Shown: positions 5,144 to 26,902 of the stretch, one piece after another
How positions within the stretch are numbered: position 1 is the first letter of the stretch
Layout: every line of letters begins with the position of its first letter
Sequence record: NZ_CP072388.1
Strand: one strand, 5' to 3'
Source of the DNA: a plasmid
Length of the DNA: 64,000 bases
Program-made: the position numbers and the translations under genes
The notes under the pieces: generated by a model
Seen by the model: only the letters and a program-made list of their open reading frames with translations
Databases searched by the model: none
Told to the model about the DNA's origin: nothing

Positions 5144-6795
5144 CAGACCAGCACCTCTTCCGCCTCGTCGTCCTCGAGGCGGATGCTGCCCGCCTGCAGG
5201 GCGCGTTCCATCGCCGCCGCCCAGGCGCGGTTGGTGTTGTTCACGTCGTACTCGCTGGGGACCATGCGCATGACGAACGGGACCCCGGCGCGCTTGCCCG
5301 TCTTGAGAAGGAACTTCCCGCGGCCGGGCGGGACGGCGGCCTGGGACGTCTCGGGGTTCACTCCCCCGTCGGCGGACCAGTCGGTGATCATCTCCTGCTC
5401 ACGGCCGGACAGGGCGAAGACCTCCTTGAGGTTGCCCATCTCCTTGTCGGCCAGCCCGCCGAGGAACACCATCGCGGAGCGCTCGACGAAGCCCCAGGCG
5501 ATCTCCGTCAGGTGGGAGTTCGCGAGCTTGAGGTCGTTCATCGTGTGCGTGATCATCGCCTGCCCGATCGCGCGCTGGCGGTTGAGCCGGGTGAGCGCGT
5601 CGACGAAGTAGACCATCGCGTCCGACGCGCGCAGCATCCGCCACAGCTCGTCCATCACCAGGAAGTAGTGCCGCTGCGCGCGCATGCCCGCGGCCGCCAG
5701 GTGCTTGTCGGCGGCCACCATCGCCGAGCCGACCGACCAGCACACCGACTGCACCGCGGCCTGCAGCTGCAGGTCCGCGTCGTCGATGCCGGACAGGTCG
5801 TAGGCCATCGGGCGCCCGAGCTCGATGTGCTCGCTGGTCGGACGGGCGAACACGTCCCCGAACGGGCCGCTGACGCCGAGGGCCAGCAGCGCGTCCAGCA
5901 GGTCCTGCACCCGGGAGTCGTAGTGCTCGGTGTCCCCGCGACTGCTCGCGACGCGGACCAGGCGCGGGTGCCGGGAGCGGACCAGCGTGGCGAGGTCGTC
6001 GACCACCGGCATGCCGGTGTGCTCCTCGTCCAGCACGCGCAGCGCCTCGGCGACCAGGGACTGCTCGTAGTCGCGCAGCCGGGTGCCGCGCACGAGGTCG
6101 AGCAGCCCGAGCACCGTCGTGCGGCGCCTGGCGCGCATCTCCTCCAGCGCCTTGCGCCGGCGCTCCTCGTCGGGGATCTGCTCGAGCTCGCGCACGAGCG
6201 GGCCGAGGTCGAGCGGGTTGATGTTGCCCACGCCCGGTCCCAGCGCGATCACCTGCCCGCCCAGCGCGCGGATCAGGTCGACGTAGTCCGGCTTGGTGTC
6301 CGACAGGACCATCGGCGTGATCCCCCACGCCGCCAGCACCGTGACCATGCGCCGGATCAGCGAGGACTTGCCCAGGCCTGGGCGGCCGAGGACGAAGCAG
6401 GACGGGTTGAGGACCAGGTTCGCCATGAACCAGTGGATCGGGTCGGCGCAGACCGTCGACCCGTTCAGCAGGTTCGGGCCCAGCGGCACGCCGCGCACCG
6501 GGTTGCCCGACCCCGCGATGAACGGCCACAGGCCGCACACCTGGACGGTCGTGCCCTGGTACTCCGGAGCGGGCTCGATGTACGGCTCGCGTCCCGTGCC
6601 GTGGCCCGCCCAGCCGCGCCGGCCCGCGCGCCGGGACGCCTGCTCGCGCCCCTCGGCGGCCGCGTCCAAGAACTTGCCGAGGGCGCCGCGGCGTCGCGGC
6701 GCGCTCGCCGCGGATGCCCGCTTGGCACGCGCGGCGATCTGGCGTGCCTCGCGGCGGGACAGCTGCAGGCCGGTGGACTGCTCGGTGCGGTTCAC
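5143..6795 (-). CDS. conjugative ATPase, VirB4/TrsE-like P-loop domain
   Basis: Walker A GRPGLGKSS. GTG start at 6795 overlaps the stop of the upstream membrane-protein gene as GTGA. The ORF-track entry 5143..7446 over-extends the N-terminus. Confidence 0.75.
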   Translation of the reverse strand: MNRTEQSTGLQLSRREARQIAARAKRASAASAPRRRGALGKFLDAAAEGREQASRRAGRRGWAGHGTGREPYIEPAPEYQGTTVQVCGLWPFIAGSGNPVRGVPLGPNLLNGSTVCADPIHWFMANLVLNPSCFVLGRPGLGKSSLIRRMVTVLAAWGITPMVLSDTKPDYVDLIRALGGQVIALGPGVGNINPLDLGPLVRELEQIPDEERRRKALEEMRARRRTTVLGLLDLVRGTRLRDYEQSLVAEALRVLDEEHTGMPVVDDLATLVRSRHPRLVRVASSRGDTEHYDSRVQDLLDALLALGVSGPFGDVFARPTSEHIELGRPMAYDLSGIDDADLQLQAAVQSVCWSVGSAMVAADKHLAAAGMRAQRHYFLVMDELWRMLRASDAMVYFVDALTRLNRQRAIGQAMITHTMNDLKLANSHLTEIAWGFVERSAMVFLGGLADKEMGNLKEVFALSGREQEMITDWSADGGVNPETSQAAVPPGRGKFLLKTGKRAGVPFVMRMVPSEYDVNNTNRAWAAAMERALQAGSIRLEDDEAEEVLV

Positions 6796-8294
6796 AGGTA
6801 CTCCCGGAGCTGGGCGGGGATGATCGAGTGCTCGGGCAGGATCACGCCGAGGGGCAGCGCGGCCTGGAACGCCACGGCCTGGTTGCCCAGCGCCGGGCGC
6901 AGCCGCAACCGGGCCTGGTTGCCCAGGGAAGGCACGATCTTGTCCAGGCGCGGGAACTCGTCCGAGCTCGCGCACGTCACGGTCACGATCGCGCCGAACC
7001 GCACGAGGCCGGCGCCCTGCGCCTCTTCCTCGGCCGCCTTGTTCGCGTACCGCAGCCGCGTGCGCTGACGCGCCGAGACTCGCTGCTTCTGCGAGGCGGT
7101 GAAGGTGGCGTTGTTGATCTCGGCCTCGATCACGTCGCTGGCCTCCCCCGCCGGGATCGGCCGGTAGAGCAGCGTCACCCGCTTGCGCAAGACGCCGGGC
7201 GTGGGCTCCACCAGACGCCGCAGCGCGCCGGAGAAGAACATCGACTCCGGCGCCTGCCACATCTGCCACGACTTCGAGACCGCGCGGTCGTGGAAGTACC
7301 GGTCGATCCTGTCCTCGGCGAACGTCGGCCCGGCCTCCGCCCAGGTCAGGCCCGTCCCGCCCTCGGCGCGCGCCTGCTCGACCCTCGAGGCGACCGTCGG
7401 GTCGTACGCCACGCGCGTGAAGTCGACGATGTCCTGAGCGGTGCACGCCCGCACGGACGTCCCGGCCCCGGTCTCCCAGAGCTGCGACAGCAGGACCGGG
7501 AGCCGGTTGCCGATCTCCTCGGCCATTGCCTGGGTGCCGCGGTCGCCGCCCTTGGCCTCCGGCGACTTCCCGGAGAACGTGATGGCGATGCGGGTCGCGA
7601 TCATCGGCGACGCCGTCGCGAGCTCGCCGACGAGCTCGCCGGCCACCGCGGCCGCGAACGGCTCCGCGTCCGGGGCCATGTTGCCCTGCACCATGCGGGT
7701 CAGGCGCACGCCGGAGTCGGGCGCCGTCTCGACGGTGACGCTCGCGCCGACGATCCCCTCGTCGACGCCGAGCTGGGCGAGCCAGGCGCCCCAGTGCGCG
7801 ACCTGCGAGTCGATGCGCGACTGGTCGACCAACGCGTCCCCGTCCGGGTACGCCTCGATCACCACGGTGTAGTGGGCGGCCGAGCGCAGCCGGATGAGCC
7901 CGAACCGGTTGCCGAACGCGTCCTGGTGCTCGCTGAGGGTGCTCGGTGCCATCAGGCCCGGCAGGCTGAACGTCCCGTCCGGCACCTTCCCGGCCGGGCC
8001 GGCGACGTAGAGGCTGTCGCCGCGGCGCGTCTTCGCCCGGTGCGCGGAGACCAGCATCCTGCGTGCGTAGAAGCTGCGGCCCTGGCGGGTGAAGCCCACC
8101 AGCAGCGCGGCCGCTGCCACGCCCACCGCCACGGTCACCAGCGCGGGCAGGTACCAGGCCCGCACGAGCATCAGGACGACGAGCACCACGAACGGGATGC
8201 CGAGCAGGGTCACGCCCATCGGCAGGCCGAGCACGCCCTGCCGGCTCGGGCGGGTCAGGTTGCCGTAGTGGATCCGGGTTGCTGCCTCAGTCAT
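6792..8294 (-). CDS. conjugation membrane protein (two N-terminal TM helices plus large soluble domain); probable N-terminal partner of the VirB4-like ATPase
   Basis: 500-aa ORF, TM helices at residues ~25-70, translationally coupled to the ATPase gene. Such an arrangement is typical of actinobacterial conjugative T4SS-like clusters. Confidence 0.65.
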   Translation of the reverse strand: MTEAATRIHYGNLTRPSRQGVLGLPMGVTLLGIPFVVLVVLMLVRAWYLPALVTVAVGVAAAALLVGFTRQGRSFYARRMLVSAHRAKTRRGDSLYVAGPAGKVPDGTFSLPGLMAPSTLSEHQDAFGNRFGLIRLRSAAHYTVVIEAYPDGDALVDQSRIDSQVAHWGAWLAQLGVDEGIVGASVTVETAPDSGVRLTRMVQGNMAPDAEPFAAAVAGELVGELATASPMIATRIAITFSGKSPEAKGGDRGTQAMAEEIGNRLPVLLSQLWETGAGTSVRACTAQDIVDFTRVAYDPTVASRVEQARAEGGTGLTWAEAGPTFAEDRIDRYFHDRAVSKSWQMWQAPESMFFSGALRRLVEPTPGVLRKRVTLLYRPIPAGEASDVIEAEINNATFTASQKQRVSARQRTRLRYANKAAEEEAQGAGLVRFGAIVTVTCASSDEFPRLDKIVPSLGNQARLRLRPALGNQAVAFQAALPLGVILPEHSIIPAQLREYL

Positions 8295-13083: not shown

Positions 13084-14524
13084 TCCGAAGACCGTGCCGG
13101 CCTTCCCGGTGGTCAACCTCGCGATGGCCGTCGACGGCGCCGTGACCGTCGATGGGCGCCCGGTCGAGGTCGCCCCGGGACAAACTCCCGCCGCTGCCGG
13201 CGTCGCGGCCGTGGCCGAGCTCGTGCGCGAGCAGGACCTGGGTGCGGTGCGCGTGCGCGCCGCCGCACCCGAAGGGGTCTTCCAGATGGTGGTCTCCGCC
13301 GACGGCGAGGCCATCGACACGACTCCCCCACCGCCTGCCCCACGCGGCCCCCGGCCGCGCCTGCTCCTGGGCATCGGCGCGGCCGCCGGGTGCGTCGTCG
13401 TACTCGGCGCGGCGACAGTCGGCGTCCTGGCGATCGCCGACGAGGCCGACCAGCCCCCGGCACAGACCCAGACCGCTACGCCCGAGCCGCTACCCGGCGC
13501 CGGCGCCAACCTGCCGGTCGCGACTCCCCCGGGCTTCGCGAGCCGGGCTACCTGGGCCGTGCCGGTGGACCCGCGCTCGACGCCGCTGGTCCGCGACGAC
13601 GGCTCGGTCGTCGTGACCACGCCGTCGGGCGACCTCAACATGCTCGACCCCGCTACCGGGCGCACGCGGTGGACCGGGACGGGCGCGCGGGGCGCTCTGG
13701 CGCTGAGCGAGGTCCAGGGCCGGCACGTCGTCGCCGCCACGTCCTCGTCCGAGCTGCACCTGTGGCCCCTCGACGTCACCGACCCCGCCCGCACCCCCGC
13801 CGTCGACCTCCCGCTGACCGCCCGCCGCGCCGAGGTCACCCACCTCGGATCCAGCCCGCTGGTCACCCTCGAGAACCAGACCGTTGCGGTGTTCGACGGC
13901 GAGGGCCTGGTGCGCCGCGACGTTCCGGTCGGCGCCGACCCGGTCCTCGCCCGCCACGACGGGATCGTGGCGGTCGGCGACGACGCCTGGTGGCTCATCA
14001 CCGCCGACGCCGATCCCGTGCGCCACGCCCTCCCGCGCCCCGACGGCGCCAGCGGCGCCCCGCTGGCCGTGTCTGCCGCCGACGACGCCACCCTGGTCAT
14101 CACCTGGCCGGTCGCCGGGCCGACGGACCTGGCCGCGCTCGTCGACATCGCCACCGGCCGCATCACGGCCCAGGCAGCCGTCGACGACGCGGCGATCGGT
14201 GCCGACGACGTCCCGCTGCACGATCCGACCGGGCAGACCATGACGCTCGGGACGCTGTTCGTCGACTACTCCCCCGAGCCGGCGATCCTCGAGCTCCCCG
14301 ACATCACGCCGACCGCGGTCCACGGACACACGATCCTTGGCACCGTCGGCCGCGCCGCGGCCGTCCTGGAGGCCGGGGACGACGAGCCCCGCATCTACGA
14401 CGAGTCCACCTCGGCGACCGCACCCCTCGCTGTCACCGACGACTACGCCTACGTCATGGCCGACAAGGTCGACCAGACGCTCCTGTACGCAGTACCCCGA
14501 ACCGACGAAGGGACGAACCCATGA
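13067..14524 (+). CDS. membrane-anchored hypothetical protein with repeated beta-strand-rich segments (possible beta-propeller)
   Basis: 485-aa ORF with an N-terminal TM after a Pro-rich region. Overlaps the hydrolase gene. Confidence 0.55.
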   Translation: MQMPLDPKTVPAFPVVNLAMAVDGAVTVDGRPVEVAPGQTPAAAGVAAVAELVREQDLGAVRVRAAAPEGVFQMVVSADGEAIDTTPPPPAPRGPRPRLLLGIGAAAGCVVVLGAATVGVLAIADEADQPPAQTQTATPEPLPGAGANLPVATPPGFASRATWAVPVDPRSTPLVRDDGSVVVTTPSGDLNMLDPATGRTRWTGTGARGALALSEVQGRHVVAATSSSELHLWPLDVTDPARTPAVDLPLTARRAEVTHLGSSPLVTLENQTVAVFDGEGLVRRDVPVGADPVLARHDGIVAVGDDAWWLITADADPVRHALPRPDGASGAPLAVSAADDATLVITWPVAGPTDLAALVDIATGRITAQAAVDDAAIGADDVPLHDPTGQTMTLGTLFVDYSPEPAILELPDITPTAVHGHTILGTVGRAAAVLEAGDDEPRIYDESTSATAPLAVTDDYAYVMADKVDQTLLYAVPRTDEGTNP

Positions 14525-15879
14525 TCAACGTCGTCGTCCACGCTGACGGCAGCGGCGGCCACGTCGAGCTGCCCGACGAGACCGTTCCCCTCGCACCGGG
14601 GAACCCCGCCGACGTCCAGCAGCGCGCCGTCAGCGTGCTCCTGCGCCACTCCGCGAAGGAAGGCCGACCCGTCACCGTCAAGGCCGTCGACGCCAGCGGC
14701 GCCAGACACCTACGCGTGACCCCGGACGGGCGCGTCGAGCCCGTGCGGAACCTCGACACCCCGCCCGCGCCCGCACCGTCTCCCGAGCAGGCCGACAACC
14801 CGGCGCCGCCCAGCCGCGACGAGTCGCCGGCGCCCGACGTCGACGCCGCCCCCACCACGCCGGCACCCGAGCCGACCCCCACCCTCGGCAGCGGCGACGA
14901 GCTCGCCCCCGCCGTCGAGCCCGGCCCGCCTGACCCCGCGGCGGCCGAGCCCATGACCCGCCGCGCCCGCAAGTCGTTCCTCACCGTCGCTCAGGCCGAG
15001 CAGCCCGCCATGAAAGGGCTGCGGGGAGCGATGACGCGCGCAGGCATCCGCATGGCACCCAGCGAAGCCGAGCGCATCGAGCGCGCCAACGTCCGCGCGG
15101 TCTCCCAGCACTGGCCCGGACCCCGGACCATCGCCGTCGTCAACGGCAAGGGCGGCGCAAGCAAGACGCCGACCACCGTCCTGCTCTCCGCGGTGTTCGC
15201 CCTCAACGGCGGCGCCGGCGTCGTGGCCTACGACAACAACCAGACCCGCGGCACTCTCGGCTGGCGCACCGAACAGGGCCCGCACGAGGCGACCCTGCTC
15301 GACATGCTCCCCCGCGCCACCCACCTGCTCGGCACCAGCGCGCAGTCGGCCGACCTCGCCCACTACGTGCACCACCAGACCCACGACCGCTACGACGTCC
15401 TGCGCTCCCAGCCCATGATGCTCGCCGACCAGCAGCGCCTGGGCGTCGACGACTTCGACGCCGTCCACGCCGTGCTCAAGAAGTACTACCGGCTCATCTT
15501 CGTCGACTCCGGCAACGACGAGTCCGACCCGCTGTGGCTGCGCATGATCGACCACGCCGACCAGCTCGTCGTCGCCACAACCACCCGAGCGGACATCGCC
15601 GAAGCCGGCGCCCTGCTGCTCGAAGCCCTGGCCGACCGCGACGAGCGATCGGCCGCCCTGGCTGCCGGCGCCGTCGTCGTCGTCAACCAGGCCAACGAGA
15701 AGGGCGGTCAGCACGAGGCCGACCAGATCGCCGACGGGTACCGAACGATCGCCCGCCAAGCGGTCACCATCCCCTACGACAAGGCGATGGTCGACGGACA
15801 CCTGCAGTTCTCGACGCTGCGCCCGACCACACGACGTGCTTGGCTTACGGCGGGGGCTGCAGTAGCGCGGGGCCTATAA
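14521..15879 (+). CDS. ParA/MinD-family P-loop ATPase with about 190-aa N-terminal extension (CpaE/TadZ-like architecture)
   Basis: Internal ATG at 14521 within long ORF 13390..15879. Deviant Walker A VVNGKGGASKTPTT. Confidence 0.7.
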   Translation: MINVVVHADGSGGHVELPDETVPLAPGNPADVQQRAVSVLLRHSAKEGRPVTVKAVDASGARHLRVTPDGRVEPVRNLDTPPAPAPSPEQADNPAPPSRDESPAPDVDAAPTTPAPEPTPTLGSGDELAPAVEPGPPDPAAAEPMTRRARKSFLTVAQAEQPAMKGLRGAMTRAGIRMAPSEAERIERANVRAVSQHWPGPRTIAVVNGKGGASKTPTTVLLSAVFALNGGAGVVAYDNNQTRGTLGWRTEQGPHEATLLDMLPRATHLLGTSAQSADLAHYVHHQTHDRYDVLRSQPMMLADQQRLGVDDFDAVHAVLKKYYRLIFVDSGNDESDPLWLRMIDHADQLVVATTTRADIAEAGALLLEALADRDERSAALAAGAVVVVNQANEKGGQHEADQIADGYRTIARQAVTIPYDKAMVDGHLQFSTLRPTTRRAWLTAGAAVARGL

Positions 15880-15918
15880 CCCGCACAATGAGCATCAGCC
15901 GCACGCATAGAACGGACC

Positions 15919-16230
15919 GTGACTCACGTGCCCGCGACCCACGACGAGGACATCGACGCCCTCGGGCAGATCGCCCGCAGCGCCGATCGCACGGCCGTCG
16001 TGCGCCATCTGAGCACGCACCCCGGTGACTACTTCGGAGCCATCCACAAGGCCACCGGCATCTCCGTCGGAAGCCTCGGCAAACACCTACGCGACCTCGA
16101 AGCCGCCGGCATCATCGTCGGCGACCTCCCCCTCGAGCAGCGCAAGGGCCGCACCGTGCGCTACCACGTCGACGACAAGCGCCTGCGGACGCTCGTCAAG
16201 AAGCTCGAACGGCGCTTGCTGGGCCAGTGA
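15919..16230 (+). CDS. winged-helix transcriptional regulator (ArsR/MarR-like wHTH)
   Basis: 103 aa. HTH segment GAIHKATGISVGSLGKHLRDLEAAGII. Confidence 0.55.
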   Translation: MTHVPATHDEDIDALGQIARSADRTAVVRHLSTHPGDYFGAIHKATGISVGSLGKHLRDLEAAGIIVGDLPLEQRKGRTVRYHVDDKRLRTLVKKLERRLLGQ

Positions 16231-16570
16231 CACCAAGGGCTCTGCGGGACGGCAAGCAGTGCGCCGTCACCTCCGCTCGCCAGGCCGCTCGGGCTTCAAC
16301 GCGACCGGCGCCGGGGAAGCAAGCGTGCACCCGAGGGTGAGAGAGGACGACACACGCCTCGCAGGCGCGCATGGCCGCCGCGGAAACACCCTCCGCTTCT
16401 TCGGCATGCCTGACGTGGCGTCCAGCGCGCGGTATCACTGTGATCGCGATCGCAGTAGGCGCCCAGGGACGTACACGTTCAGGCGCCCATCGTCACGAAC
16501 ACGCGGCGGGCGACACGCCGACACGCCAGTTGCAGAATTCGTCCGGATTCAGGAAGTCGTGTGGTTGAGT

Positions 16571-17044
16571 ATGCCCATGACGATCTCCACGGGACGACCG
16601 AGCAAGGGTGACAGGGACCAGTTCCTGCTCGAGCTCCCCGTCGCCGCCGCGGACATCCTTCGACGCAACGCCGACGCCCTGCAGATGCCCCACGGCGAGT
16701 ACATCGCCGCGGTCCTCGCCGAGCAGGTGGGCATGCCCTGGCTCGCACCTGTCGAGACGCGAGCACCGTATGCCGGCCGCATTCAGGAGATGCTCGACGA
16801 AGTCGGAGTGAAGGCGTGGGACACCGCTCCTGCCTCCGGTTGGGCCGAGACCATCAAGTTCACGACGCGTCCCGCGCGGCCCATCGGAGATCTCGTCCGT
16901 TCACGCTCGCGCGTGCAGGGCATGACGTACAAGGAGTACATCGTCGCGGCAGTCATGGCGTGGCACGGCATCACGCGTGATGCCGACCCTGCGTTGGCGC
17001 CCCGTTCGCGCTACGCCCGGGAGGCGATGCGCCAACCCGCATAA
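16571..17044 (+). CDS. hypothetical protein with two tandem ribbon-helix-helix-like segments
   Basis: Internal start of ORF 16025..17044. Repeated motif HGEYIAAVLAEQVGMPW / YKEYIVAAVMAWHGI. Followed by a strong hairpin. Confidence 0.4.
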   Translation: MPMTISTGRPSKGDRDQFLLELPVAAADILRRNADALQMPHGEYIAAVLAEQVGMPWLAPVETRAPYAGRIQEMLDEVGVKAWDTAPASGWAETIKFTTRPARPIGDLVRSRSRVQGMTYKEYIVAAVMAWHGITRDADPALAPRSRYAREAMRQPA

Positions 17045-17046
17045 GA

Positions 17047-17075
17047 AAGTGGCCCGTCCCTTGCGGGACGGGCCA
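17047..17075 (+). terminator. GC-rich hairpin terminator candidate (GTGGCCCGTCCC-ttgc-GGGACGGGCCAC)
   Basis: Perfect 12-bp inverted repeat lying 3 nt after the stop at 17044. Confidence 0.5.
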
Positions 17076-17194
17076 CCAGATCGAACCACTTCCGGCGACT
17101 TGCTTGGCGGCTGGAAACCGGAGCGGTTCTCTACCTAAGAACAGGAGCCATCATACCCACCGCCCCGACGGGGCGCGATTTCGCCTACACCGGC

Positions 17195-18994
17195 GTGTCG
17201 TCGCCAACCGTTTCCGAGCTCTCGCAGGCGAGCCATGCGCACCCGCGCGCAGGCTCGCCCGACGAGCAGTGGGCGGACACCGCGCACCTCCTTGCAGGGT
17301 GCGACCGGGTGCGCATCGGCACGATCCGCGCTGATCGCAGCGTCGACTACCCCACCCGCGGCGAACGTAAACTCACACTCGCGCGTCCGACGGCACCGGC
17401 CGCGGTCCGCGTCTACGGTGATGACGGCTGCTGCCGCGCCCTGTTCCTCGACCTCGACGCCAAGGGCCGCCACGGTGCGGTCGACGTAGCCCGAGACGGA
17501 GCAGTGCTGCAGCGCATCCTCGCCGTTGCCGGGCTGCGTACCTTCGTCGACATCGCCCCGACCGGTGGTCGTCACATCTACGTCCCCCTCGCCAAGCGTC
17601 TGCCGTTCGAGGTTGCTCGCGAGCTCGTCGAGGCGCTTGCCCGGCACGCGCCCACGCTCGATCCAGGCCCGCACCGCAGCGTGCGCACCGGGTGCATCCG
17701 CACGCCAGGATCCACGCACGGCGCCGGCGGCCACCAAGTCCTGACCAGCAGCCTCTCGAGCGCTGTCGACGTCCTCAAGCGACCCAACCCACCCACCGCC
17801 ATTGCAGAGCTCCGCGGCATGCTCGCCGGCGACATTGCCGCGGTCCGCGCTCAGCGCGACGACCTGACAATCGTCTCTGCGCCCACCTCTGACCAGCCCG
17901 GTGCACCCGGCACGCTCTCCGCCCGTGTCGTCGCGATCGCCCGCAACGGGCTCTGGGACGTCGGCCGCTACGACTCGCCATCCGCTGCACGCCAGGCGGT
18001 CATCACGGCCTGCGTGCGTGCCGGCTGGGACATCACCGATGTGCAGCGTCGACTCAACGATGGCACATGGCCGGCTCTCGCGGGCATGTACGCCCGGTAC
18101 TCCCCCGCACGGCGCCCCGTGTCCCTGCGGGCCGACTGGCTCAAGGCGAGGGCGTACATCGCCTGTACGCCTCAAGACCCGAAAACCAGCAGTGACGTGC
18201 AGAAAGACAGTGTGCACATCTCCAACACAAGCGCTCTTCTGTCACAGGGGGGCGACGACCACGGCTGGATCCGAACCTGGCGGGCTGCGGTCTCCACCTA
18301 CGAGACGGTGCGTCTTCCCGGTAGGCACTGGTACACGGCACGGTTTCTTCTCCGTGCGATCGGAGAGGCTGCACACAAGACCGGCAGCAGGTACGTCGGA
18401 TTCGGCTGCAGATCGCTCGCTGAAGCCTGCGGAGCCGACTACACGACGGTGTCAGTCTTACTGCACGAACTCCAGCGTGCTGGCTGGATCGACCTGATCG
18501 AGTCCGCGCGCGGCGAGACAGCAGACCTGTACGAGCTCACCCTCCCCCACGATCTCCGCGGCCGGTCGGACGAACTGCGCTGGCAGCGTGGCAAGGTGTA
18601 CTCGCTTCGGCCGGCCTTCCGCGAGCTCGGCCACGTCAGTGCTTTCGTCTTCGAGGCCGTTGAGCAGGGCAGGGCCTCCTCCATCACGGAACTTGTCGCC
18701 ATCACCGGGATCTCGCGACGAGCTGTTCACACCAGCATTGACCTGCTCACCGCCTGGGACCTCGTCGAACGCACAGACGAGGGCCTGCGAGCCTTCCCGG
18801 AGCGCCTCGGGCGTGTCGCCGAGCACCTCGGCGCCTTCGAGGCGATCTACGAGCAGATGCGCCGTCACCGCGCACAGCGGGCCACCTGGCGGGCCTGGCT
18901 CGCGCGGTTCGAGGGCCACTGGGATGAGGGCGAGCACTGGGACGAACTCCACTCCCCCGCGGCCGAGACCCTCTTCGCGACGGAGGTGGCCTGA
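17195..18994 (+). CDS. replication protein with N-terminal primase-polymerase (Prim-Pol) domain and C-terminal winged-helix domains
   Basis: Prim-Pol motifs LFLDLDAKG (Dx D) and APTGGRHIYVPL (sGxGxHxh). Lies immediately upstream of the partition genes. Confidence 0.65.
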   Translation: MSSPTVSELSQASHAHPRAGSPDEQWADTAHLLAGCDRVRIGTIRADRSVDYPTRGERKLTLARPTAPAAVRVYGDDGCCRALFLDLDAKGRHGAVDVARDGAVLQRILAVAGLRTFVDIAPTGGRHIYVPLAKRLPFEVARELVEALARHAPTLDPGPHRSVRTGCIRTPGSTHGAGGHQVLTSSLSSAVDVLKRPNPPTAIAELRGMLAGDIAAVRAQRDDLTIVSAPTSDQPGAPGTLSARVVAIARNGLWDVGRYDSPSAARQAVITACVRAGWDITDVQRRLNDGTWPALAGMYARYSPARRPVSLRADWLKARAYIACTPQDPKTSSDVQKDSVHISNTSALLSQGGDDHGWIRTWRAAVSTYETVRLPGRHWYTARFLLRAIGEAAHKTGSRYVGFGCRSLAEACGADYTTVSVLLHELQRAGWIDLIESARGETADLYELTLPHDLRGRSDELRWQRGKVYSLRPAFRELGHVSAFVFEAVEQGRASSITELVAITGISRRAVHTSIDLLTAWDLVERTDEGLRAFPERLGRVAEHLGAFEAIYEQMRRHRAQRATWRAWLARFEGHWDEGEHWDELHSPAAETLFATEVA

Positions 18995-19009
18995 GATGAG
19001 GGCCGAGGC

Positions 19010-19100
19010 CCCAGCGATCTTCATTCATGAACACAGACATGAACCACGTCATGAACCGTGTTCGCCAGTCATGACTTCATGCATTCATGCAAACATGCAC
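19010..19100. repeat. short array of TCATGA/GCATGC-type motifs between rep and parA
   Basis: tcattcatgaacacagacatgaaccacgtcatgaaccgtg...tcatgacttcatgcattcatgcaaacatgcac. Same motif family as the large array at 20.56-21.01 kb. Confidence 0.6.
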
Positions 19101-19147
19101 AACCAGGCGTCCGCCGGACACCCTGGACGACTTGAGAGAGGTACGCG

Positions 19148-19924
19148 ATGACGACGACGACCGCGCTCGGAAACCAGAAGGGCGGTGTCGGGAAGACCAC
19201 GGTGTCGCTGTGTCTGCTGAGCGAGCTCGCTCGTCTCGGCAGGTCATGTCTGCTGATCGACCTCGATCAGCAGATGTCTGCGTCCTCGACCGTGGGCGCG
19301 GAGGGCGACATCACGATCGAGGACGTCCTGCGCGCGAAGGCTCCCGCGCACCTGTCCGATGCGATCGAGAAGTCGCAGTGGGAGGGGATCGACGTCGTTC
19401 CGGGCTCCGACACCATCCAGACCCTTGAACGTGACCCCGACGTCATGGCCGCCTTCCGTCTCCAGAAGGTCCTTCGAGACAACGCCGACCTGCTCTCCAA
19501 GTACGACGACATCATCATCGACCTGCCACCGGATCTGGGGACCTGTACGGTCTCCGGCCTCCTCGCGGCCGACCAGGTCGTCGCCGTGACGATCCCGGAG
19601 CCGTGGAGTTCCGAAGGCCTCGACCGATTCCTCACTACGCTCGAGGGGATCCGCCAGGGGCCTCACCCCTCGTTGACCCTGTTCGGCGTCATCGTGAACA
19701 TGGTCCGCCGCACCAACGAGCACCGGTACCGCATCGCCGAGTTGAACGACTCCGTGGGCGGGCTCGTCATGAACCCGGTGATCCCGCAGCGCGTCGCCGC
19801 GGCGGAGGTCGCAAGCGAGCAGCTGCCGCTGCACGAGCTGAAGAACGAGGGCGCAAAGGTCCTATCAGACCTGTTCGCTGAGCACGCCAGGGCGCTGGCC
19901 GAGGGCCGGAAGGGGAAGAACTGA
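19148..19924 (+). CDS. parA: ParA partition ATPase
   Basis: Walker A GNQKGGVGKTT. 258 aa. Confidence 0.9.
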   Translation: MTTTTALGNQKGGVGKTTVSLCLLSELARLGRSCLLIDLDQQMSASSTVGAEGDITIEDVLRAKAPAHLSDAIEKSQWEGIDVVPGSDTIQTLERDPDVMAAFRLQKVLRDNADLLSKYDDIIIDLPPDLGTCTVSGLLAADQVVAVTIPEPWSSEGLDRFLTTLEGIRQGPHPSLTLFGVIVNMVRRTNEHRYRIAELNDSVGGLVMNPVIPQRVAAAEVASEQLPLHELKNEGAKVLSDLFAEHARALAEGRKGKN

Positions 19925-20535
19925 TGCCGAAGCCGCGAATGTCGAAGAGAACAGCTCTCGACGTCGTCCTCGGTCAGCCGGCGCCTGTCGCGGCGCCGGA
20001 GTCCGGAAACGGGACGAGCACAACCACCGCTGTGGTCGAGCCTGAGCAGAGGGACGAAGGGCCAACGTCTGACGAGGCCGAAGGAACCGAACCCGAGCCC
20101 GCGCCCACAGCGGATGGCGCCCCGTCGGCAGAGAGCACAACGCTCGTTACGCCGGATCAGGACGAGACGGCGGAAGTTGAGGACGGCCAGCGCGAGACCA
20201 GCGAGACGGACGAGGCAGGCGAACCCGCTGAGTCGGCCGAGCCTGAACCGCTGCCCACCCCGGAGCCGGGGCCACGCCAGGCGGCGTCGAAGGCTCGACC
20301 TCGCAGGCATGCTCCGGCTGCCCCCTCTCTCGAGGAGTCTGACCCCCGATTTCAGCCGGTGCTCGGACGCAACGATGATGCTGCGCTCGTGCCGTTCTCG
20401 ACCCGCCTTACCCCAGATCTACGTCGCCGGCTCAAGCTCTACTCCGCGGTGTCGGGCGAGTCCACGACCAGCCTGACCAACCGCGCGCTCGACTACATGC
20501 TCGAGGTGGCCGAACGCAAGGTCGGCATGCGCTGA
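19924..20535 (+). CDS. partition centromere-binding protein, ParG-like (disordered acidic N-terminus, C-terminal RHH)
   Basis: ATG overlaps the parA stop (ATGA-type coupling). C-terminal LKLYSAVSGESTTSLTNRALDYMLE resembles an RHH fold. Confidence 0.55.
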   Translation: MPKPRMSKRTALDVVLGQPAPVAAPESGNGTSTTTAVVEPEQRDEGPTSDEAEGTEPEPAPTADGAPSAESTTLVTPDQDETAEVEDGQRETSETDEAGEPAESAEPEPLPTPEPGPRQAASKARPRRHAPAAPSLEESDPRFQPVLGRNDDAALVPFSTRLTPDLRRRLKLYSAVSGESTTSLTNRALDYMLEVAERKVGMR

Positions 20536-20559
20536 GTCATCCCGTCCATGTCTGAGGGC

Positions 20560-21010
20560 CCTGCGTCGATCGCGCGGGGCCCTCAGCCTTTGCGCAGGCG
20601 TGTGTGAAGTCATGAATGCATGAAGTCATGAGTACCGCGGTCCCAGCCGCGCCCAGCACCGTTCATGAAAGCATGCATGAATGCATAAACTCGCGAGCCC
20701 ATCGTTGGGCCGGCGTACATCCACCACCCGGACAGTTCATGCATGCCTTCATGAAAGCAGGAACGAATGAATGCATGATCCCGTGACCACTTTGCGTGCG
20801 TCGGTGAAAGTATGAAGTAGTTCACGCATTCATGTACCACTTCATGCATGACTGCATGTGTTGATGAAGCAAGTCATGAAGCCATTCATGTTTACATGCA
20901 TTCATGCATGACGTCATGAACGCATGAATGCATGAACGGTTCTCCTGCGAGCTGTTGGTTCGGGCGACCATGCATGAATGCATGAATGCATGCATGCGTT
21001 CATGCAGTTC
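20560..21010. repeat. dense iteron/centromere-like array built from CATG-centred palindromes (TTCATGCATGAA, TCATGA, GCATGC, ACATGT)
   Basis: More than 30 copies of the TCATG/CATGA hexamer in about 450 bp. AT-rich island inside 70% GC DNA. Six-frame ORFs here are M/H/C-rich artefacts of the repeated ATG/CAT. Confidence 0.8.
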
Positions 21011-21136
21011 ACACTGCCTCGCCTGCCTTGTCCTCGTTGGCGCAGTCGCGGGACAACCGAGATTAGAAGCTCCACGTGAGTGGGGCACAGCTCGTATGTG
21101 CGCACCTAGGCTGACATCGATAGAGCGGGAGGTGCG

Positions 21137-21667
21137 ATGGTCGAGCGTGGATCCTGCCGCACGTGCGGCGTGGAAACTGTCCGCCTGAGGTGCTTCGACG
21201 GCACTGTGCGGACATTCCACGCGCGAGAAGCCGCCAATCCCGATCTCGACGAGTCTCAGCGCTGGTACTACACGGCCACGCGCGGAGCGATCAGCGGCGC
21301 CGACGCGTCCTCGCCACCCAACAGGCCGTACCTAACCCTTCACCAGTGCCTGCGCACACGCGCCGGCTTCGGCGAGTCCACCAGAAACGAGGCCGGCACG
21401 ATCCGTGCCGCCGACGCAGTCGCGCTCCGTACGGATGTCCCCACGGTCAACGACTCGGCGCTGAGCCTCACCGGCTACCGCTGGACGTACCGATGGCCGT
21501 CCCACTGGGCGCACATCATCGCAGGCCGAGCACCCCAGGCGCTGTGCGGCGCCACCGTCCTGGTGCCCGAGGAGATGAGCGAGAGGGAACGCGCGCGGAT
21601 CTCGACGATGCACGTGTGCCCACGGTGCGTGCAGACGAACGCCCGCCACGAACGAACACGTCGCTAG
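21137..21667 (+). CDS. hypothetical protein with two Cys pairs (CxxC...CxxC), zinc-ribbon-like
   Basis: CRTCGVE at the N-terminus and CPRCVQT at the C-terminus. 176 aa. Confidence 0.45.
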   Translation: MVERGSCRTCGVETVRLRCFDGTVRTFHAREAANPDLDESQRWYYTATRGAISGADASSPPNRPYLTLHQCLRTRAGFGESTRNEAGTIRAADAVALRTDVPTVNDSALSLTGYRWTYRWPSHWAHIIAGRAPQALCGATVLVPEEMSERERARISTMHVCPRCVQTNARHERTRR

Positions 21668-21728
21668 GGGAGCACGCGCATCGACGCCGTGTGCGAAGAT
21701 CTACAACGAATGCAAAGACTGCAAAGGA

Positions 21729-22868
21729 GTGCGAACGGTGGCGCGTAACCCGTTCAAGCCCACAGCGGGCGCCACACCGCCCCTGCTCGTCGGGCGTGAT
21801 GACGACCTCGAGGAGTTCGCTGAATCCCTGGACGACGGACCAGGCGCGCCCGGACGACTGACGATCTTCACCGGCGCCCGCGGCGTCGGCAAGACCGTGA
21901 TGCTCACCGAGGTCGCCGACACCGCGCTCCAGCGAGCCTGGGTGACGATCGCCGAGACCGCCACGCCCGGCCTCATCGACCGCCTCTCGGCAGCCACCTC
22001 GATGCTCTCGCGCGAGCACGATCCGACCAGCCACCGCGGCCGCAGCATCACCGGTGTCACCCTGCCGGTCGTAGGTGGAGGCCTCACCTTCAGCCAGGCA
22101 CCTGCCGTCGTCACGGCGTGGCGCGACGAGCTCGGGGGAGTGCTCGACGCACTCGAGAACCACGGCACCGGACTGCTCGTCACGATCGACGAGGTCCACC
22201 ACGTCGCACGCGAAGACCTTCGCGCACTCGCCGCAACGTTCCAGCACCTGGTACGCGAAGACCGCAACGTCGCCCTCGCCTTCGCCGGTCTCCCGTCGTC
22301 GGTCTCCGACCTGCTCAACGACGACGTCCTGACCTTCCTGCGCCGCGCCACACCCGTCCACCTGGAAGACGTCGCCCTCGACGACGTCAAGACCGCCCTG
22401 CGCACCACCATCACCGACAGCGGACGCACCATCACCGACACCGCCCTCGACGCCGCCGCACAAGCCACCGGCGGCTACCCCTTCATGATCCAGCTCGTCG
22501 GCTACCACGTATGGCGCAAAGCCAGCAGCGACACCATCGACGAAGCCGCCGTCGCACTCGGCATCCCAGCCGCCCGCAAGCGACTCGGCTCCACCGTCCA
22601 CGCCACGGCCCTCGCCGACCTGTCCGACGTCGACCGCACCTATCTGCTCGCCATGGCACAAGACGACGGCCCCTCCCGCACCGGAGTCATCGCGAAGCGA
22701 CTACGCGTCAGCGACTCCTACGCCCAGGTCTACCGCGGCAGACTCCTCGACGCCGGCATGATCGAGACAACCAGACGCGGCTACGTCGACTTCGCCATCC
22801 CCTACCTGCGCGAATACCTCCGCGAGCACGCCGCCCAGTACGAGATGGCAAACCGCCCCGAGAACTGA
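21729..22868 (+). CDS. AAA/ORC-Cdc6-like ATP-binding protein with C-terminal wHTH
   Basis: Walker A FTGARGVGKT, Walker B-like LLVTIDEVHHV. Alternative GTG at 21738 is preceded by aaggag. Confidence 0.65.
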   Translation: MRTVARNPFKPTAGATPPLLVGRDDDLEEFAESLDDGPGAPGRLTIFTGARGVGKTVMLTEVADTALQRAWVTIAETATPGLIDRLSAATSMLSREHDPTSHRGRSITGVTLPVVGGGLTFSQAPAVVTAWRDELGGVLDALENHGTGLLVTIDEVHHVAREDLRALAATFQHLVREDRNVALAFAGLPSSVSDLLNDDVLTFLRRATPVHLEDVALDDVKTALRTTITDSGRTITDTALDAAAQATGGYPFMIQLVGYHVWRKASSDTIDEAAVALGIPAARKRLGSTVHATALADLSDVDRTYLLAMAQDDGPSRTGVIAKRLRVSDSYAQVYRGRLLDAGMIETTRRGYVDFAIPYLREYLREHAAQYEMANRPEN

Positions 22869-22936
22869 CCTGTACCCCGCCAGCGCGCCCTGTCGCCGCG
22901 CAGCGCGCGCTGCGGGCCACCACCCAAGGAGCAGAC

Positions 22937-23098
22937 ATGACCCTCGACGTCAACTACCCGCCTACTCACCACCCAGCCGTAGCCGTCCCTGAGCGCCAAG
23001 ACGTCGAGCAGTCCCTGCTCGCCCACCTCCCTCAGCCCACAACGCCAGCCATCGGAGACCTGACCTGGCCAGGCCTCGAGGCACCCGAGAGCCTCTAG
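22937..23098 (+). CDS. small hypothetical protein (53 aa)
   Basis: Good RBS (aaggagcagac) 6 nt before the ATG. Internal to longer ORF 22118..23098. Confidence 0.35.
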   Translation: MTLDVNYPPTHHPAVAVPERQDVEQSLLAHLPQPTTPAIGDLTWPGLEAPESL

Positions 23099-23528: not shown

Positions 23529-23880
23529 TGGTGGAGCTCGGCAGGGTGCGTGGTGCGCCGGCCGGTGGCCGGCCCGATCTGTGGCCGCTGCGCGGCCCGG
23601 TGCTTTCCCGCGCTGCGCGCGGGGAAGTCGTCCCCTCCTGGCTCTCCATCATCGCCCGCGCGACCCTGCGCGCAACCCGCTCGACTACGTCGCCGGCCCG
23701 TCGCCGAAACTCGTCGCCCGGCGCTCCTTCGTCGCTTCATCCGGGCGACGAGCCCCGTCGTCGGACCGTACCGCGGGTTGCACTCCGGGCCGCTTATGCG
23801 GGCGTTGATTACGGAGCCAGGAGGGGGCGAAAAACGGTCGGGACCACCCGCCACCCGCCACCTGGCAGGAAGGAGCCCCC
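23529..23880 (+). repeat. R1 leader repeat, copy 1 (about 350 bp, non-coding, ends in RBS plus start codon of downstream gene)
   Basis: Near-identical to 25144-25495 and 29240-29539. Contains hairpin CCCGCGC-tgc-GCGCGGG and the conserved tail ggagccaggagggggcgaaaaacggtcgggaccacc. Confidence 0.8.
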
Positions 23881-24915
23881 GTGGCTCACCAGCCCGCACT
23901 CCGCGCCCGCACCGTCGCCGACGTGCTCGCCTACATCCCCGCGTGCATCGGGTACACCCCGACCGAGAGCATGGTCGTCGTCGCCCGCCGGTCGAGCACC
24001 GGCACCGTCGGCCTGGTCGCTCGCGCGGACCTGTCCGACGTCACGCCCGAGACGGCCGACATGCTCGCCGTGCACGTCGCCAACGACCGCGCCGCGTCCG
24101 CGATCATCGCCCTGTACACCGAGGACCGCGAGCAGGCCGACCGCACCCTCGCGGGCATGACCGAGGCCCTGCACGGCCAGGCCGTCGACGTGTACGACGC
24201 CGTGCAGGTCAGCGCCGACGGGTACGTCGACCTCCACGCGCCGCACCCGGTCGTGCGCCCGCTGTCGGACGTGACCTCGAGCGTGCTCGCCGCCGAACTG
24301 GTCGCCTCCGGCGTCGCCCCGGCGCGTGACCGCGCCGGGCTGCTGCCCGGCGCGGCCGACGAGGCCGCCCAGGACCTCGCCCGCAGTGCGGCCGCCAAGC
24401 ACGCCGCCAAGACGCGCGACGAGCAGACCACCCACGCGCTCGCCACGTGGCGACTCGCGCTCAGCGGCCTGGTCGACGGCCCCGCGATCTACGGCGAACT
24501 CGCGCAGATGCTCACGCACATCAAGGTCCGTGACGCCGCCCTGCTGACCGCCGTCCCCGACGTCGACCCGGACACCGTGACCCAGGTTGTCACCGGGCAG
24601 AACCCGGACGACGACGCCGTGGGCCGCGCGATCGCCGCGATGGTGGACCCGAAGGTCGGCGTCCAGCCCGGTGAGGCCGCCGACGCCGCGCGCGATCTGC
24701 TCGCGCAGATCATCGCGCACGTGCCCACCAGCGCCGCCGCGTGGACGCTGTGGGGCTTCCTCACGTGGTGGACCGGGCAGAACGGCATCGCGGGCGACGC
24801 CATCGACCGCGCGCTCAGCGTCGACGACGGCTATCGCCTGGCCCTGATGCTGCGGGCCGTGCTTCGGGCGGGCCTGCCGCCCGCATGGGTCGTGCGCGAG
24901 CGCGACGCGCAGTGA
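23881..24915 (+). CDS. DUF4192-like hypothetical protein (344 aa)
   Basis: GTG start right after R1 copy 1. Actinobacterial mobile-element protein family. No catalytic motif recognised. Confidence 0.6.
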   Translation: MAHQPALRARTVADVLAYIPACIGYTPTESMVVVARRSSTGTVGLVARADLSDVTPETADMLAVHVANDRAASAIIALYTEDREQADRTLAGMTEALHGQAVDVYDAVQVSADGYVDLHAPHPVVRPLSDVTSSVLAAELVASGVAPARDRAGLLPGAADEAAQDLARSAAAKHAAKTRDEQTTHALATWRLALSGLVDGPAIYGELAQMLTHIKVRDAALLTAVPDVDPDTVTQVVTGQNPDDDAVGRAIAAMVDPKVGVQPGEAADAARDLLAQIIAHVPTSAAAWTLWGFLTWWTGQNGIAGDAIDRALSVDDGYRLALMLRAVLRAGLPPAWVVRERDAQ

Positions 24916-25060: not shown

Positions 25061-25143
25061 GCAGACCGCACCGAACCAGCCACCAGCGCCAGGCCGGGGA
25101 GCGGCCCGTGGCCGATGGGGGAGTGCCGGTAGCGGGTGCGCCT

Positions 25144-25495
25144 GGTGGAGCTCGGCCAGGTGCGTGGTGCGCCGGCCGGTGGCCGCCCCGATTCGGTGGC
25201 CGCTGCGCGGCCTGGTGTTCTCCCGCGCTGCGCGCGGGGGAGTCGTCCCCTCCTGGCTCTCCATCATCGACCGCGCGACCCTGCGCGCAACCGACCTCGC
25301 TGCGCGTCCCGGCCCGGCGAAACTCGGCGGCCTGCGGTCGCTGCGCTCCCTGAGCTCGGCCGGCGAGCCCCGCCGTTCCGGGACCGGTCGGTTGCGCTCT
25401 GGGCCGCTTGTGCGGTCGGTGATTACGGAGCCAGGAGGGGGCGAAAAAACGGTCGGGACCACCGGCCACCCACCTGCTGGCGGGAAGGGGCACCC
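25144..25495 (+). repeat. R1 leader repeat, copy 2
   Basis: See copy 1. Copies differ by single-nucleotide indels (gaaaaacgg versus gaaaaaacgg), so R1 is non-coding. Confidence 0.8.
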
Positions 25496-26902
25496 ATGAC
25501 CACCGACACCACGGCCACTCAGGCCGAGACGACCACCACCGCCGACGGCGCGGAGTTCGCCCACGTCGACCCGCGCACCCTGGTTGTCGGCGTGAACGTG
25601 CGCGCCGACGCCGACCTCACGCCCGCGTTCGTCGGCTCGATCAAGCAGCACGGAGTCCTGCAGCCCGTGCGCGTGCGCCGCGACGACGACGGCACGCTCG
25701 TCGTCCTGCACGGCCAGCGCCGCACCCTGGGCGCGATCGAGGCGGGCCAGGCGACGATCCCCGCGTACATCGTGACCAGCAGCGGCGAGGGCGCGCAGCG
25801 CATCGTGGAGCAGTTGGCCGAGAACGACCATCGCGAGGACATGCGCGACAGCCACCGCACCGCCGCCTACCGTCAGCTCTCGCTCGAGTTTGGGCTGAGC
25901 GCGGCGCAGATCGCCAAGCGCACCGGCACGAAGAAGGCCGTCGTCCAGGCCACGCTCACCGTGGCCGAGTCCCAGGTCGCCGCCGCCGTGCAGGCCAAGT
26001 ACGACCTGCCGCTGGATGTGGCCGCCGCCCTGGCGGAGTTCGACGACGACACTGAGACCGTCAAGAACCTGACCGCCGTCGCGGTCAAGGAGCCTGGCCG
26101 CTTCGCCCACGAGGCTCAGCGCGCGCGTGACGAGCGCCAGCGCGCCGCCGAGGTCGCCGCCGCCCGCGAGACCCTGACCGCACAGAACGTGACCGAGGTC
26201 GAGCGCCCCGACTACAACGACGCCAAGGTCCAGCACCTGGCTCGACTCAAGCCCACCAACGACGACCCGAACGGCACCGACCTGACCCCCGAGGCGCACG
26301 CCGAGTGCCCCGGTCACGCGGCGTACATCGCCGCGCAGTGGAACCGCGTCGAGATCGTCTACGTCTGCACGAACTGGCGCACCCACGGCCACGCCGACCG
26401 CTACGGCACCACCAGCACCCAGCGCACCGGACCGATGAGCGAGGCCGAGAAGGCCGAGCGCAAGCAGGTCATCGAGAACAACAAGGCGTGGAAGTCCGCC
26501 GAGACCGTGCGCCGGACCTGGCTCGCGGAGTTCGCCCAGCGCAAGACCGCCCCCAAGGGCGCCGCCGAGTACATCGCCCACGCGATCGCCACCGAAACCC
26601 ACACCCTGCGACGCGCAGGAGAGCGCGGACACACACTGGCCAGCGAATGGCTCGGCATCAAGACCGAGACCAGCCCGTACCCGACCGGACGCGGCCTGGC
26701 CGACCTCATCGCCAAGGCCACCCCCAGCCGCGCCCAGCACATCGCGCTCGTCCTCGCCCTCGCCGCACGCGAGGCCGAGACCGGCGTGCAGACCTGGCGC
26801 CGCGAAGGCGCCGAACAGACCTACCTCAGCGCACTCGAAACCTGGGGCTACACCCTCAGCGACGTCGAGCAGATCGCCCGAGGCCAGGCGCCCACCGAGT
26901 AG
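25496..26902 (+). CDS. ParB/Srx N-terminal domain protein (ParB-like nuclease domain), 468 aa
   Basis: LQPVRVRRDDDGTLVVLHGQRRTLGAIEAG matches the ParB N-terminal domain fold motif (GxRR). ATG at 25496 directly follows R1 copy 2. Confidence 0.65.
   Translation: MTTDTTATQAETTTTADGAEFAHVDPRTLVVGVNVRADADLTPAFVGSIKQHGVLQPVRVRRDDDGTLVVLHGQRRTLGAIEAGQATIPAYIVTSSGEGAQRIVEQLAENDHREDMRDSHRTAAYRQLSLEFGLSAAQIAKRTGTKKAVVQATLTVAESQVAAAVQAKYDLPLDVAAALAEFDDDTETVKNLTAVAVKEPGRFAHEAQRARDERQRAAEVAAARETLTAQNVTEVERPDYNDAKVQHLARLKPTNDDPNGTDLTPEAHAECPGHAAYIAAQWNRVEIVYVCTNWRTHGHADRYGTTSTQRTGPMSEAEKAERKQVIENNKAWKSAETVRRTWLAEFAQRKTAPKGAAEYIAHAIATETHTLRRAGERGHTLASEWLGIKTETSPYPTGRGLADLIAKATPSRAQHIALVLALAAREAETGVQTWRREGAEQTYLSALETWGYTLSDVEQIARGQAPTE

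Follow-up and report, generated by a model that had tools for sequence, protein, structure and literature searches.

The stretch of DNA analysed here (the window) comprises 64,000 nucleotides of a plasmid (sequence record NZ_CP072388.1) and carries, between positions 20560 and 21010, a dense series of CATG tetramers, hereafter referred to as the island. It follows a two-gene operon, which encodes a small ParA-type ATPase and a partner protein predicted to bind a centromere, and a second, smaller array of the same boxes separates this operon from an upstream rep-like gene. The features of the locus are as follows:

17195-18994, plus strand: rep-like gene (599 amino acids) with a primase-polymerase-like N-terminal part and winged-helix domains
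19019-19103, no strand: upstream CATG array with 7 boxes (at 19026, 19038, 19050, 19070, 19078, 19086 and 19094)
19148-19924, plus strand: parA, encoding a small Walker-type ATPase of 258 amino acids
19924-20535, plus strand: predicted gene of the centromere-binding partner (203 amino acids)
20552-20586, plus strand: stem-loop with a perfect 15-bp GC-rich stem, directly 3' of the partner stop codon
20607-20632, no strand: island cluster A, 3 CATG boxes at 8-bp spacing
20660-20689, no strand: island cluster B, 3 perfect boxes and 1 degenerate box, containing TTCATGAA and CATGCATGAA
20734-20779, no strand: island cluster C, 4 perfect boxes and in-phase weak boxes (cagg, aatg, aatg)
20807-20938 (132 bp), no strand: island cluster D, 12 perfect boxes and degenerate in-phase boxes
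20969-21008, no strand: island cluster E, 6 perfect boxes

A first-pass annotation made from the sequence alone had drawn attention to the island, and the counts bear out both its position and its extreme departure from chance. The number of boxes inside 20560-21010 is 28, spanning 20607-21008, rather than the more than 30 originally claimed. When the window is divided into bins of 500 bp, 29 copies of CATG fall into 20501-21000, the runner-up bin holds 9 and all remaining bins hold 5 or fewer; with a background of 3.1 CATG per kb, i.e., about 1.5 expected per 500 bp, the Poisson probability of the island is about 1e-26. The extended hexamer CATGAA is found 39 times in the window as compared to 9.3 expected, with 19 copies located in the island and 6 in the upstream array (19019-19103). 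A three-unit pattern of 20 nt, searched with up to two mismatches, gave 11 matches in the 64 kb, all within the two arrays and with 0 expected, and no array resembling either of them was found elsewhere in the 64-kb window. The surrounding DNA is indeed GC-rich, as previously noted, with a window mean of 70.1%, and the island (20600-21010) has a GC content of 52%, falling to 46% in its lowest 200 bp.

Within clusters, all spacings between neighbouring CATG boxes (23/23) are multiples of 4 bp, mostly 8, for which the chance is 0.25^23, and this phase is broken solely at the four gaps between clusters. The initial description of the island as made almost entirely of palindromes thus gives way to five clusters with GC-rich spacers between them, across which the distance from CATG to CATG amounts to 37-62 bp. 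The four bases 3' of an island box follow the rule [A/C]-A-T-[G/T], and the neighbour of a box is therefore AATG, CATT or another CATG. The working unit is the 8-bp sequence CATGAAWG, which has a polarity and is present in the island in both orientations; CATGCATG marks the point where the orientation flips (<-|->) and where the 8-bp register is shifted by 4. All boxes of cluster D share one 4-bp phase with orientation flips at CATGCATG junctions, and cluster E is detected by Tandem Repeats Finder as a period-4 array of 9.5 copies. The perfect palindrome TTCATGCATGAA that had been reported from the island is absent from the window, which contains three single-mismatch versions of it instead, and the island holds two of these. 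As for GCATGAATGCATGAA, exact copies are restricted to two in the island and one upstream of parA.

Two other explanations for the island were tried and rejected. An RNA gene across it received Rfam matches of chance level and miRNA type only, and a cluster of methylation sites is an idea unsupported within the window, as no DNA methyltransferase was found among the roughly 40 larger open reading frames (ORFs) checked. The six-frame ORFs over the island are Met/His/Cys-rich artefacts (FMHAFMHSCM-type), as had been suspected.

The upstream array was missed by the first-pass annotation, which had proposed to search for the motif elsewhere in the replicon and in relatives; the unit recurs in the array at 19019-19103, and arrays of it flank the par operon in every relative. 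The upstream array occupies part of the 153 bp separating the rep stop codon (18994) from the parA start (19148) and ends about 50 nt 5' of the latter. Its boxes share a single 4-bp phase and comprise three rightward units followed by two leftward ones.

ParA matches the Pfam families AAA_31 (2.8e-32) and CbiA (3e-21) over its whole length, is devoid of an N-terminal DNA-binding domain and has Soj/ParA proteins as its closest solved structures (1wcv at 7e-25). The start of the partner gene overlaps the parA stop by one base, and the order parA-partner is the same in all relatives. The partner protein begins with a basic peptide (MPKPRMSKRTALDVVLGQPAP), continues with a disordered, acidic linker of some 115 residues and ends in a C-terminal ribbon-helix-helix (RHH)-like domain, whose strand reads VPFSTRL. 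When it is aligned with 13 homologues, the N-terminal 20 residues (MPKPRMQKRTALDVVLGQPAP) and roughly the last 65, which form the predicted DNA-binding end, are invariant, whereas the acidic residues in between (window 19990-20320, residues ~22-135, rich in Glu, Asp, Pro and Thr) vary freely, which renders the linker hypervariable among plasmids. The AlphaFold2 monomer model shows a short segment and two C-terminal helices at a predicted local distance difference test score of about 90 and is disordered in the remainder. The designation of the partner as "ParG-like" in the first-pass annotation stands with respect to the fold class; a sequence relationship is undetectable, be it to ParG or to ParB of the Leifsonia plasmid pCXC100, since a sequence search of the PDB with an E-value limit of 10 returned no match. 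Likewise, no Pfam match to the ParG family was obtained at E ≤ 0.01.

Homologues of the partner form 16 clusters among 5.8 billion proteins, and those with a name stem mostly from Cellulosimicrobium, with one from Isoptericola and one from a Mycobacterium-labelled metagenome-assembled genome (MAG). The C-terminal domain family is rare, as an exhaustive HMMER search of 1.84 billion sequences yielded five cluster representatives. A tblastn search of plasmids with the full partner gave no match, and a word-index search with the C-terminal 70 residues was empty, no candidate sharing three 5-residue words. Two distant relatives, P0017 (252 amino acids) and P0018 (224 amino acids), carry two tandem RHH-like domains per chain with NNRV strands and may represent single-chain versions of the RHH dimer; the N-terminal peptide of P0018 resembles that of the window partner.

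The stem-loop at 20552-20586 has a folding energy of -32 to -36 kcal/mol (z = -3.7), and in the relatives an equally strong hairpin of unrelated sequence stands at the same spot, separating operon and island in all cases checked. Consensus promoter and terminator scans of 18900-21300 gave no calls, which in the case of the hairpin is explained by its lack of a T-run. This structure is the probable end of the par transcript, and the island would consequently lie outside the operon.

The locus has five close relatives, four of them full-length (L004, L006, L008 and L009; Cellulosimicrobium and the Mycobacterium-labelled MAG) and a fifth on a cut contig (L138). In all four full-length relatives, rep is followed by the small array, parA, the partner gene, the hairpin and the island, with identities to the window of 84% for Rep and 94-95% for ParA. 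The two arrays differ strongly in their conservation. The upstream array is colinear and 78-86% identical in the relatives and thus as conserved as coding DNA; in the alignment, its boxes are invariant across five plasmids and the variation is confined to spacer positions. In contrast, the downstream island is unalignable, with a global identity of 37-41%, although the islands of the relatives contain 18-27 CATG over some 400 bp, phased at 4 bp like those of the window. Since the boxes are kept while the sequence is not, selection appears to act on box content and not on sequence order. In L138, the most divergent member of the family, the contig ends as a CATGAA array starts beyond the hairpin. 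The gene 3' of the island varies between plasmids, with a 176-aa ORF on the plus strand from 21137 in the window, an ORF of 50-53 aa in L004, L006 and L009, and different content again in L008, and the island therefore belongs with the par operon. A 341-aa gene called in L008 on the minus strand (4709-5734) runs across the CATG island of that plasmid (4701-5115) and is probably a spurious, Met/His/Cys-rich call.

Nine further plasmids of the Micrococcales, with very different par modules, were included in the comparison. Two of them were recovered by a genome pattern scan (a Pseudarthrobacter plasmid, L120, and an Arthrobacter contig, L019) and seven by protein searches of plasmids: Arthrobacter NicSoilB4 (L130), Pseudarthrobacter BIM B-2242 (L132), Clavibacter pCM2 (L131) and pCCa (L141), Rathayibacter (L135), Cryobacterium (L134) and Curtobacterium (L140). 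The scan of genome contigs for CATGAANGCATGAANGCATG otherwise hit mostly unrelated 8-bp microsatellites in many phyla, so that only L019 and L120 were informative; in a Cellulosimicrobium chromosome (L077), the pattern is limited to one run of three units, and no par genes were seen there. The distance to the window module is considerable: in the one pair compared, ParA of L120 is 26% identical to the window ParA, and in the one partner compared, that of L134, likeness is limited to 14/25 residues around the strand. Nevertheless, the strand [VYFLI]P[FL]STR[LVI] is found in all nine plasmids, and all nine have 3-13 copies of CATG within 300 bp 5' of parA, as compared to about 1 expected. Altogether, CATG boxes and a PFSTR strand are found together in 14 replicons. 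In four of the distant plasmids (L134, L135, L140 and L141), no rep homologue was found within 2.6-3 kb of par.

The Arthrobacter-type site is a 16-bp palindrome, CATTCATGCATGAATG, which extends the perfect TTCATGCATGAA and equals one <-|-> pair of the window unit. About 11 copies are dispersed at intervals of ~100 bp over 1.2-1.5 kb of non-coding DNA 5' of parA with a GC content of 59%, and one more is located between the partner gene and a convergent rep gene. Such arrays are found in L132 (1110-2400 and 3695-3735), L019 (~600-2100) and L120 (3245-3670). This series appears to follow the same centromere grammar in a very extended, non-tandem layout. A different picture emerged for two plasmids whose Rep is 52-56% identical to that of the window and whose partner is of another type. 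They carry CAAG/CTTG arrays and no CATG island: Cellulosimicrobium pTL2A (L001) has CTTGCAAG-type units 5' of parA (7835-7960) and Cellulomonas p110066 (L003) 9-bp CAAGCAnnn repeats 5' of parA (7900-8075), in both cases with no downstream island.

Taken together, we consider it likely that the island acts as the principal centromere of a plasmid partition system of type Ib, with the array at 19019-19103 serving as operator and auxiliary centromere. The locus features a small Walker ParA, an adjacent partner gene in the same operon and repeats both beside the operon and in the promoter region, as is characteristic of this type. Among the readings offered at first, the comparative evidence favours a centromere for the RHH partner of ParA. 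In support of it, the same unit recurs in the parA promoter region and arrays flank the operon in every relative; moreover, the CATG box travels with the PFSTR strand across differing par modules, including neighbourhoods without rep.

In the proposed mechanism, dimers of the partner would contact the CATG boxes by placing a two-stranded ribbon (VPFSTRL) in the major groove and would load side by side every 8 bp, in the manner of ParG on parH and MetJ on met boxes, cooperatively coating each of the five clusters, which could place about 30 dimers on the island. A symmetric ribbon with Ser and Arg on its DNA face would suit the palindromic C-A-T-G with a G at each outer position. The acidic linkers might keep the basic N-terminal peptides (with the invariant K8 and R9) off the DNA, and these peptides could stimulate the ATPase of nucleoid-bound ParA, whereby plasmid copies would be moved and spaced. 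Occupancy of the seven boxes overlapping the parA promoter region would in turn repress the operon, in agreement with the proposed role of the upstream array as operator of the par promoter in addition to auxiliary centromere. The analysis itself shows the arrays with their grid and pattern of conservation, the order of the genes and the pairing of box and strand sequence; from these we infer binding of the partner with one dimer per 8 bp, repression, ATPase stimulation and a function in plasmid stability.

The class of system is well known and every architectural feature of the locus has a precedent. MetJ offers an analogy for the binding geometry only: tandem 8-bp met boxes with a palindromic consensus are each bound by one RHH dimer and neighbouring dimers contact each other, but MetJ is a chromosomal repressor with 2-5 boxes that has no partition role and needs a co-repressor. 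Compared to the small RHH proteins of partition systems, such as ParG with about 76 aa and omega with 71 aa, the partner with its 203 aa is large. Its linker of ~115 acidic residues is far longer than the tails of ParG or omega, the latter having no long linker at all, and there is no detectable sequence homology to ParG. A close parallel in DNA organization is parH/OF of the type Ib ParF/ParG system of TP228, which likewise consists of tetramer boxes with 4-bp A/T-rich spacers in direct and inverted orientation, combines a promoter-overlapping array with a larger main centromere, and is served by a small Walker ATPase and an RHH-class protein with a flexible N-terminal tail (PMC3130281). ParG dimers occupy the 8-bp grid there at one per 4-bp box, irrespective of orientation, with 8 boxes in the operator and 12 in the centromere (PMC3130281). 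The differences lie in the box (palindromic CATG here, ACTC in TP228), in box number (28 + 7 here, the 28 arranged in five clusters over 400 bp, vs 12 + 8) and in the position of the large array, which is downstream of the operon here and upstream in TP228.

From the same bacterial order, pCXC100 of Leifsonia xyli subsp. cynodontis is also a Micrococcales plasmid with a type Ib locus and a centromere of unspaced short repeats, and its ParB, too, was unrecognisable by sequence and has a C-terminal RHH domain (RHH-like in the case of the window partner) (PMC3074162). Its nine 9-bp repeats are bound successively by dimers (PMC3074162). These are direct repeats (AGNTGGAAA) contained in about 90 bp, exclusively upstream of parA, whereas the present locus has CATG-centred 8-bp units in both orientations and a much larger second array downstream; furthermore, the window partner has no sequence match to the solved ParB domain. 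In the delta/omega system of pSM19035, the RHH protein omega binds contiguous short repeats, the parS heptads, of mixed orientation in several arrays per plasmid and acts as repressor as well as centromere binder, at least 4 contiguous 7-bp units in any orientation being needed for ParA activation (PMC9499535). The unit is, however, asymmetric and 7 bp long in that case, and the arrays comprise 7-10 units, all at promoters.

With respect to the position of the arrays, the type Ib locus par2 of pB171 is a precedent, having centromere-like arrays on both sides of the operon as an exception to the upstream rule. Work by Ebersbach and Gerdes in 2001 and by Ringgaard and colleagues in 2007 is said to describe 6-bp repeats in arrays of 17 and 18. 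This system is enterobacterial, has another repeat sequence and arrays of similar size, in contrast to the unequal arrays of 7 and 28 boxes found here. The order in a par2 construct is given as parC1, parA, parB, parC2 (PMC4270457). Against this background, what is new is the CATG box, the partner family, a main array of this size placed downstream, and the contrast between a conserved and a rapidly changing array.

Several observations weigh against the island being a centromere. The RHH assignment of the partner is weak when taken alone: Pfam RHH_10 is matched with E = 0.008 and 16.9 bits, below the cut-off of 27; the best Foldseek matches in the PDB are RHH antitoxins (6iya, 6gts and 6g26) superposing with a root-mean-square deviation of 0.7-0.9 Å over 36-40 residues, but all with E > 1; and, as mentioned above, the PDB sequence search was empty. 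The pairing of strand and box also has its exceptions, as the array of the Cryobacterium plasmid (L134) is degenerate with just 3 CATG in 300 bp and a Ruania plasmid (L137) has 3 CATG 5' of parA in spite of its strand QLSVRV. Described type Ib systems have their centromere upstream of the operon (PMC3074162), while the window has its main array downstream and only the small one upstream. From the sequence, the binding register could be either centred on a box or placed between two boxes, and the literature searched contained no mention of the CATG motif. Two further points of this kind concern replication, since the island is the lowest-GC DNA beside rep and no other iteron-like repeat array was found near rep (15800-19200).

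It is these two points that speak for the most serious alternative, a role as origin or iteron array, in which Rep, a protein of primase-polymerase type encoded 1.5 kb upstream, would use the CATG units as iterons and the low-GC lattice as unwinding element, or in which the island would serve replication and partition alike. Moreover, whichever of the two gene arrangements applies, an adjacent rep is always followed directly by a CATG site, and pRN1, a plasmid of the primase-polymerase type, requires a sequence downstream of its rep (PMC4234260). We nevertheless regard an origin as very unlikely. The units are contiguous, 8 bp long and present in both orientations. Plasmid iterons, by comparison, are direct repeats of 17-22 bp with helical phasing. 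The order within the island is not conserved despite a Rep identity of 84%, and there is no match to a DnaA box within 14 kb of the island. In addition, CATG arrays stand beside parA in the four plasmids without nearby rep, the large Arthrobacter-type array lies across the par operon from rep with its sites in DNA of 59% GC, and the plasmids with homologous Rep and another partner type (L001 and L003) lack CATG arrays. The original suggestion of Rep iterons or an origin is consequently unsupported. A more specific and somewhat less credible version is a lattice that is both centromere and start of replication, where Rep would open the RHH-coated low-GC grid, possibly gated by CATG methylation; if true, segregation and initiation would be coupled on one piece of DNA.

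The island could also be mainly a regulatory operator, with the partner acting as a global repressor like omega and controlling the genes from 21137, which would be compatible with a centromere role. It does stand upstream of the plus-strand gene at 21137, and RHH partition proteins such as omega of pSM19035 and ParG of TP228 double as repressors at several promoters; however, it stays with the par operon in the relatives while the gene beyond it changes, 28 boxes over 400 bp in five clusters far exceed the needs of an operator, and its order is free to vary, unlike that of the promoter-linked upstream array. We therefore judge this to be very unlikely. Least credible of all is a functionless degenerate (CATG)n or 8-bp microsatellite arising from replication slippage. 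The period-4 and period-8 arrays detected by Tandem Repeats Finder, the fast turnover of the island and the occurrence of the 20-nt pattern as simple 8-bp microsatellites in many unrelated genomes would be in line with such an origin, but slippage would not account for an island found at one position in all four full-length relatives, and starting in L138, although its sequence has turned over completely. Nor would it account for the same unit in the strongly conserved promoter-proximal array, for the association with one RHH strand type over 14 replicons or for Arthrobacter-type sites that are discrete 16-bp palindromes about 100 bp apart and not in tandem.

If confirmed, the centromere reading would make this, after that of pCXC100, the second centromere type characterised in actinobacterial plasmids and would define a family of partner proteins unrecognised by any profile library. 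The pairing of PFSTR with the palindromic CATG across very different par modules, next to neighbouring plasmid lineages with other strands and other boxes, constitutes a natural test set for how an RHH strand reads DNA. The frozen promoter-side array and the fast-evolving downstream array of the same boxes furthermore represent a clean case for centromere turnover, and this contrast may bear on the origin of plasmid incompatibility groups. From an applied perspective, the cassette of parA, partner and island could be used to stabilise vectors for Cellulosimicrobium and related high-GC hosts.

Regarding the plasmid as a whole, the Rep-like protein matches the Pfam family MarR_2 (9e-10) and, weakly, LigD_Prim-Pol, and tblastn detected homologues in 242 actinobacterial plasmids, with 162 close to full-length; rep adjoins parA in the close relatives. 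Other genes of the window encode a type IV coupling protein, a relaxase and its NikA-like partner, a primase of the DnaG type and metal resistance, and the window accordingly belongs to a conjugative plasmid. Among database proteins, the nearest is one of Cellulosimicrobium cellulans, and megablast of 17000-23000 against plasmids and phages gave no match.

Further elements related to partition genes were observed in and outside the window. An 829-aa ORF (13390-15879, plus strand), located 3 kb upstream of rep, encodes a second protein of the ParA superfamily, whose ParA-like P-loop domain (AAA_31, CbiA) is solely C-terminal (residues 579-799). In the Ruania plasmid L137, ACGTAA repeats with another palindromic tetramer core occur at 1-130 on the minus strand beside the three CATG 5' of parA. 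Curtobacterium pTCS (L139) carries at 2625-2777 an orphan 50-aa remnant of a PFSTR-type RHH domain (VTVPFSTRRALDV...) with no adjoining parA and no CATG array; the working par locus of pTCS has another partner type.

Behind the island, a gene of the DUF4192 family (23881-24915, plus strand) is followed by one for a 588-aa protein with ParB_N and HTH_ParB domains (25136-26902, plus strand). This pair is syntenic in L001, and in L006 and L009 ParB_N alone follows a conserved element. The ParB_N protein was considered as a binder of the arrays and rejected, as L001, devoid of a CATG island, has both this protein and the element preceding DUF4192. This element, about 330 bp of GC-rich non-coding DNA at 23540-23880 (plus strand) just 5' of the DUF4192 gene, has counterparts in L001 (9560-9985), L006 (5370-5805) and L009 (5330-5755). 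With a mean column identity of 85% over the four plasmids, it exceeds the neighbouring genes in conservation and is kept in L001 as well, despite the other type of par module there. It has no Rfam family match and folds into a single long hairpin with imperfect pairing. Its role may be that of a single-strand promoter or initiation element in the leading region of conjugation, or else that of the actual origin.

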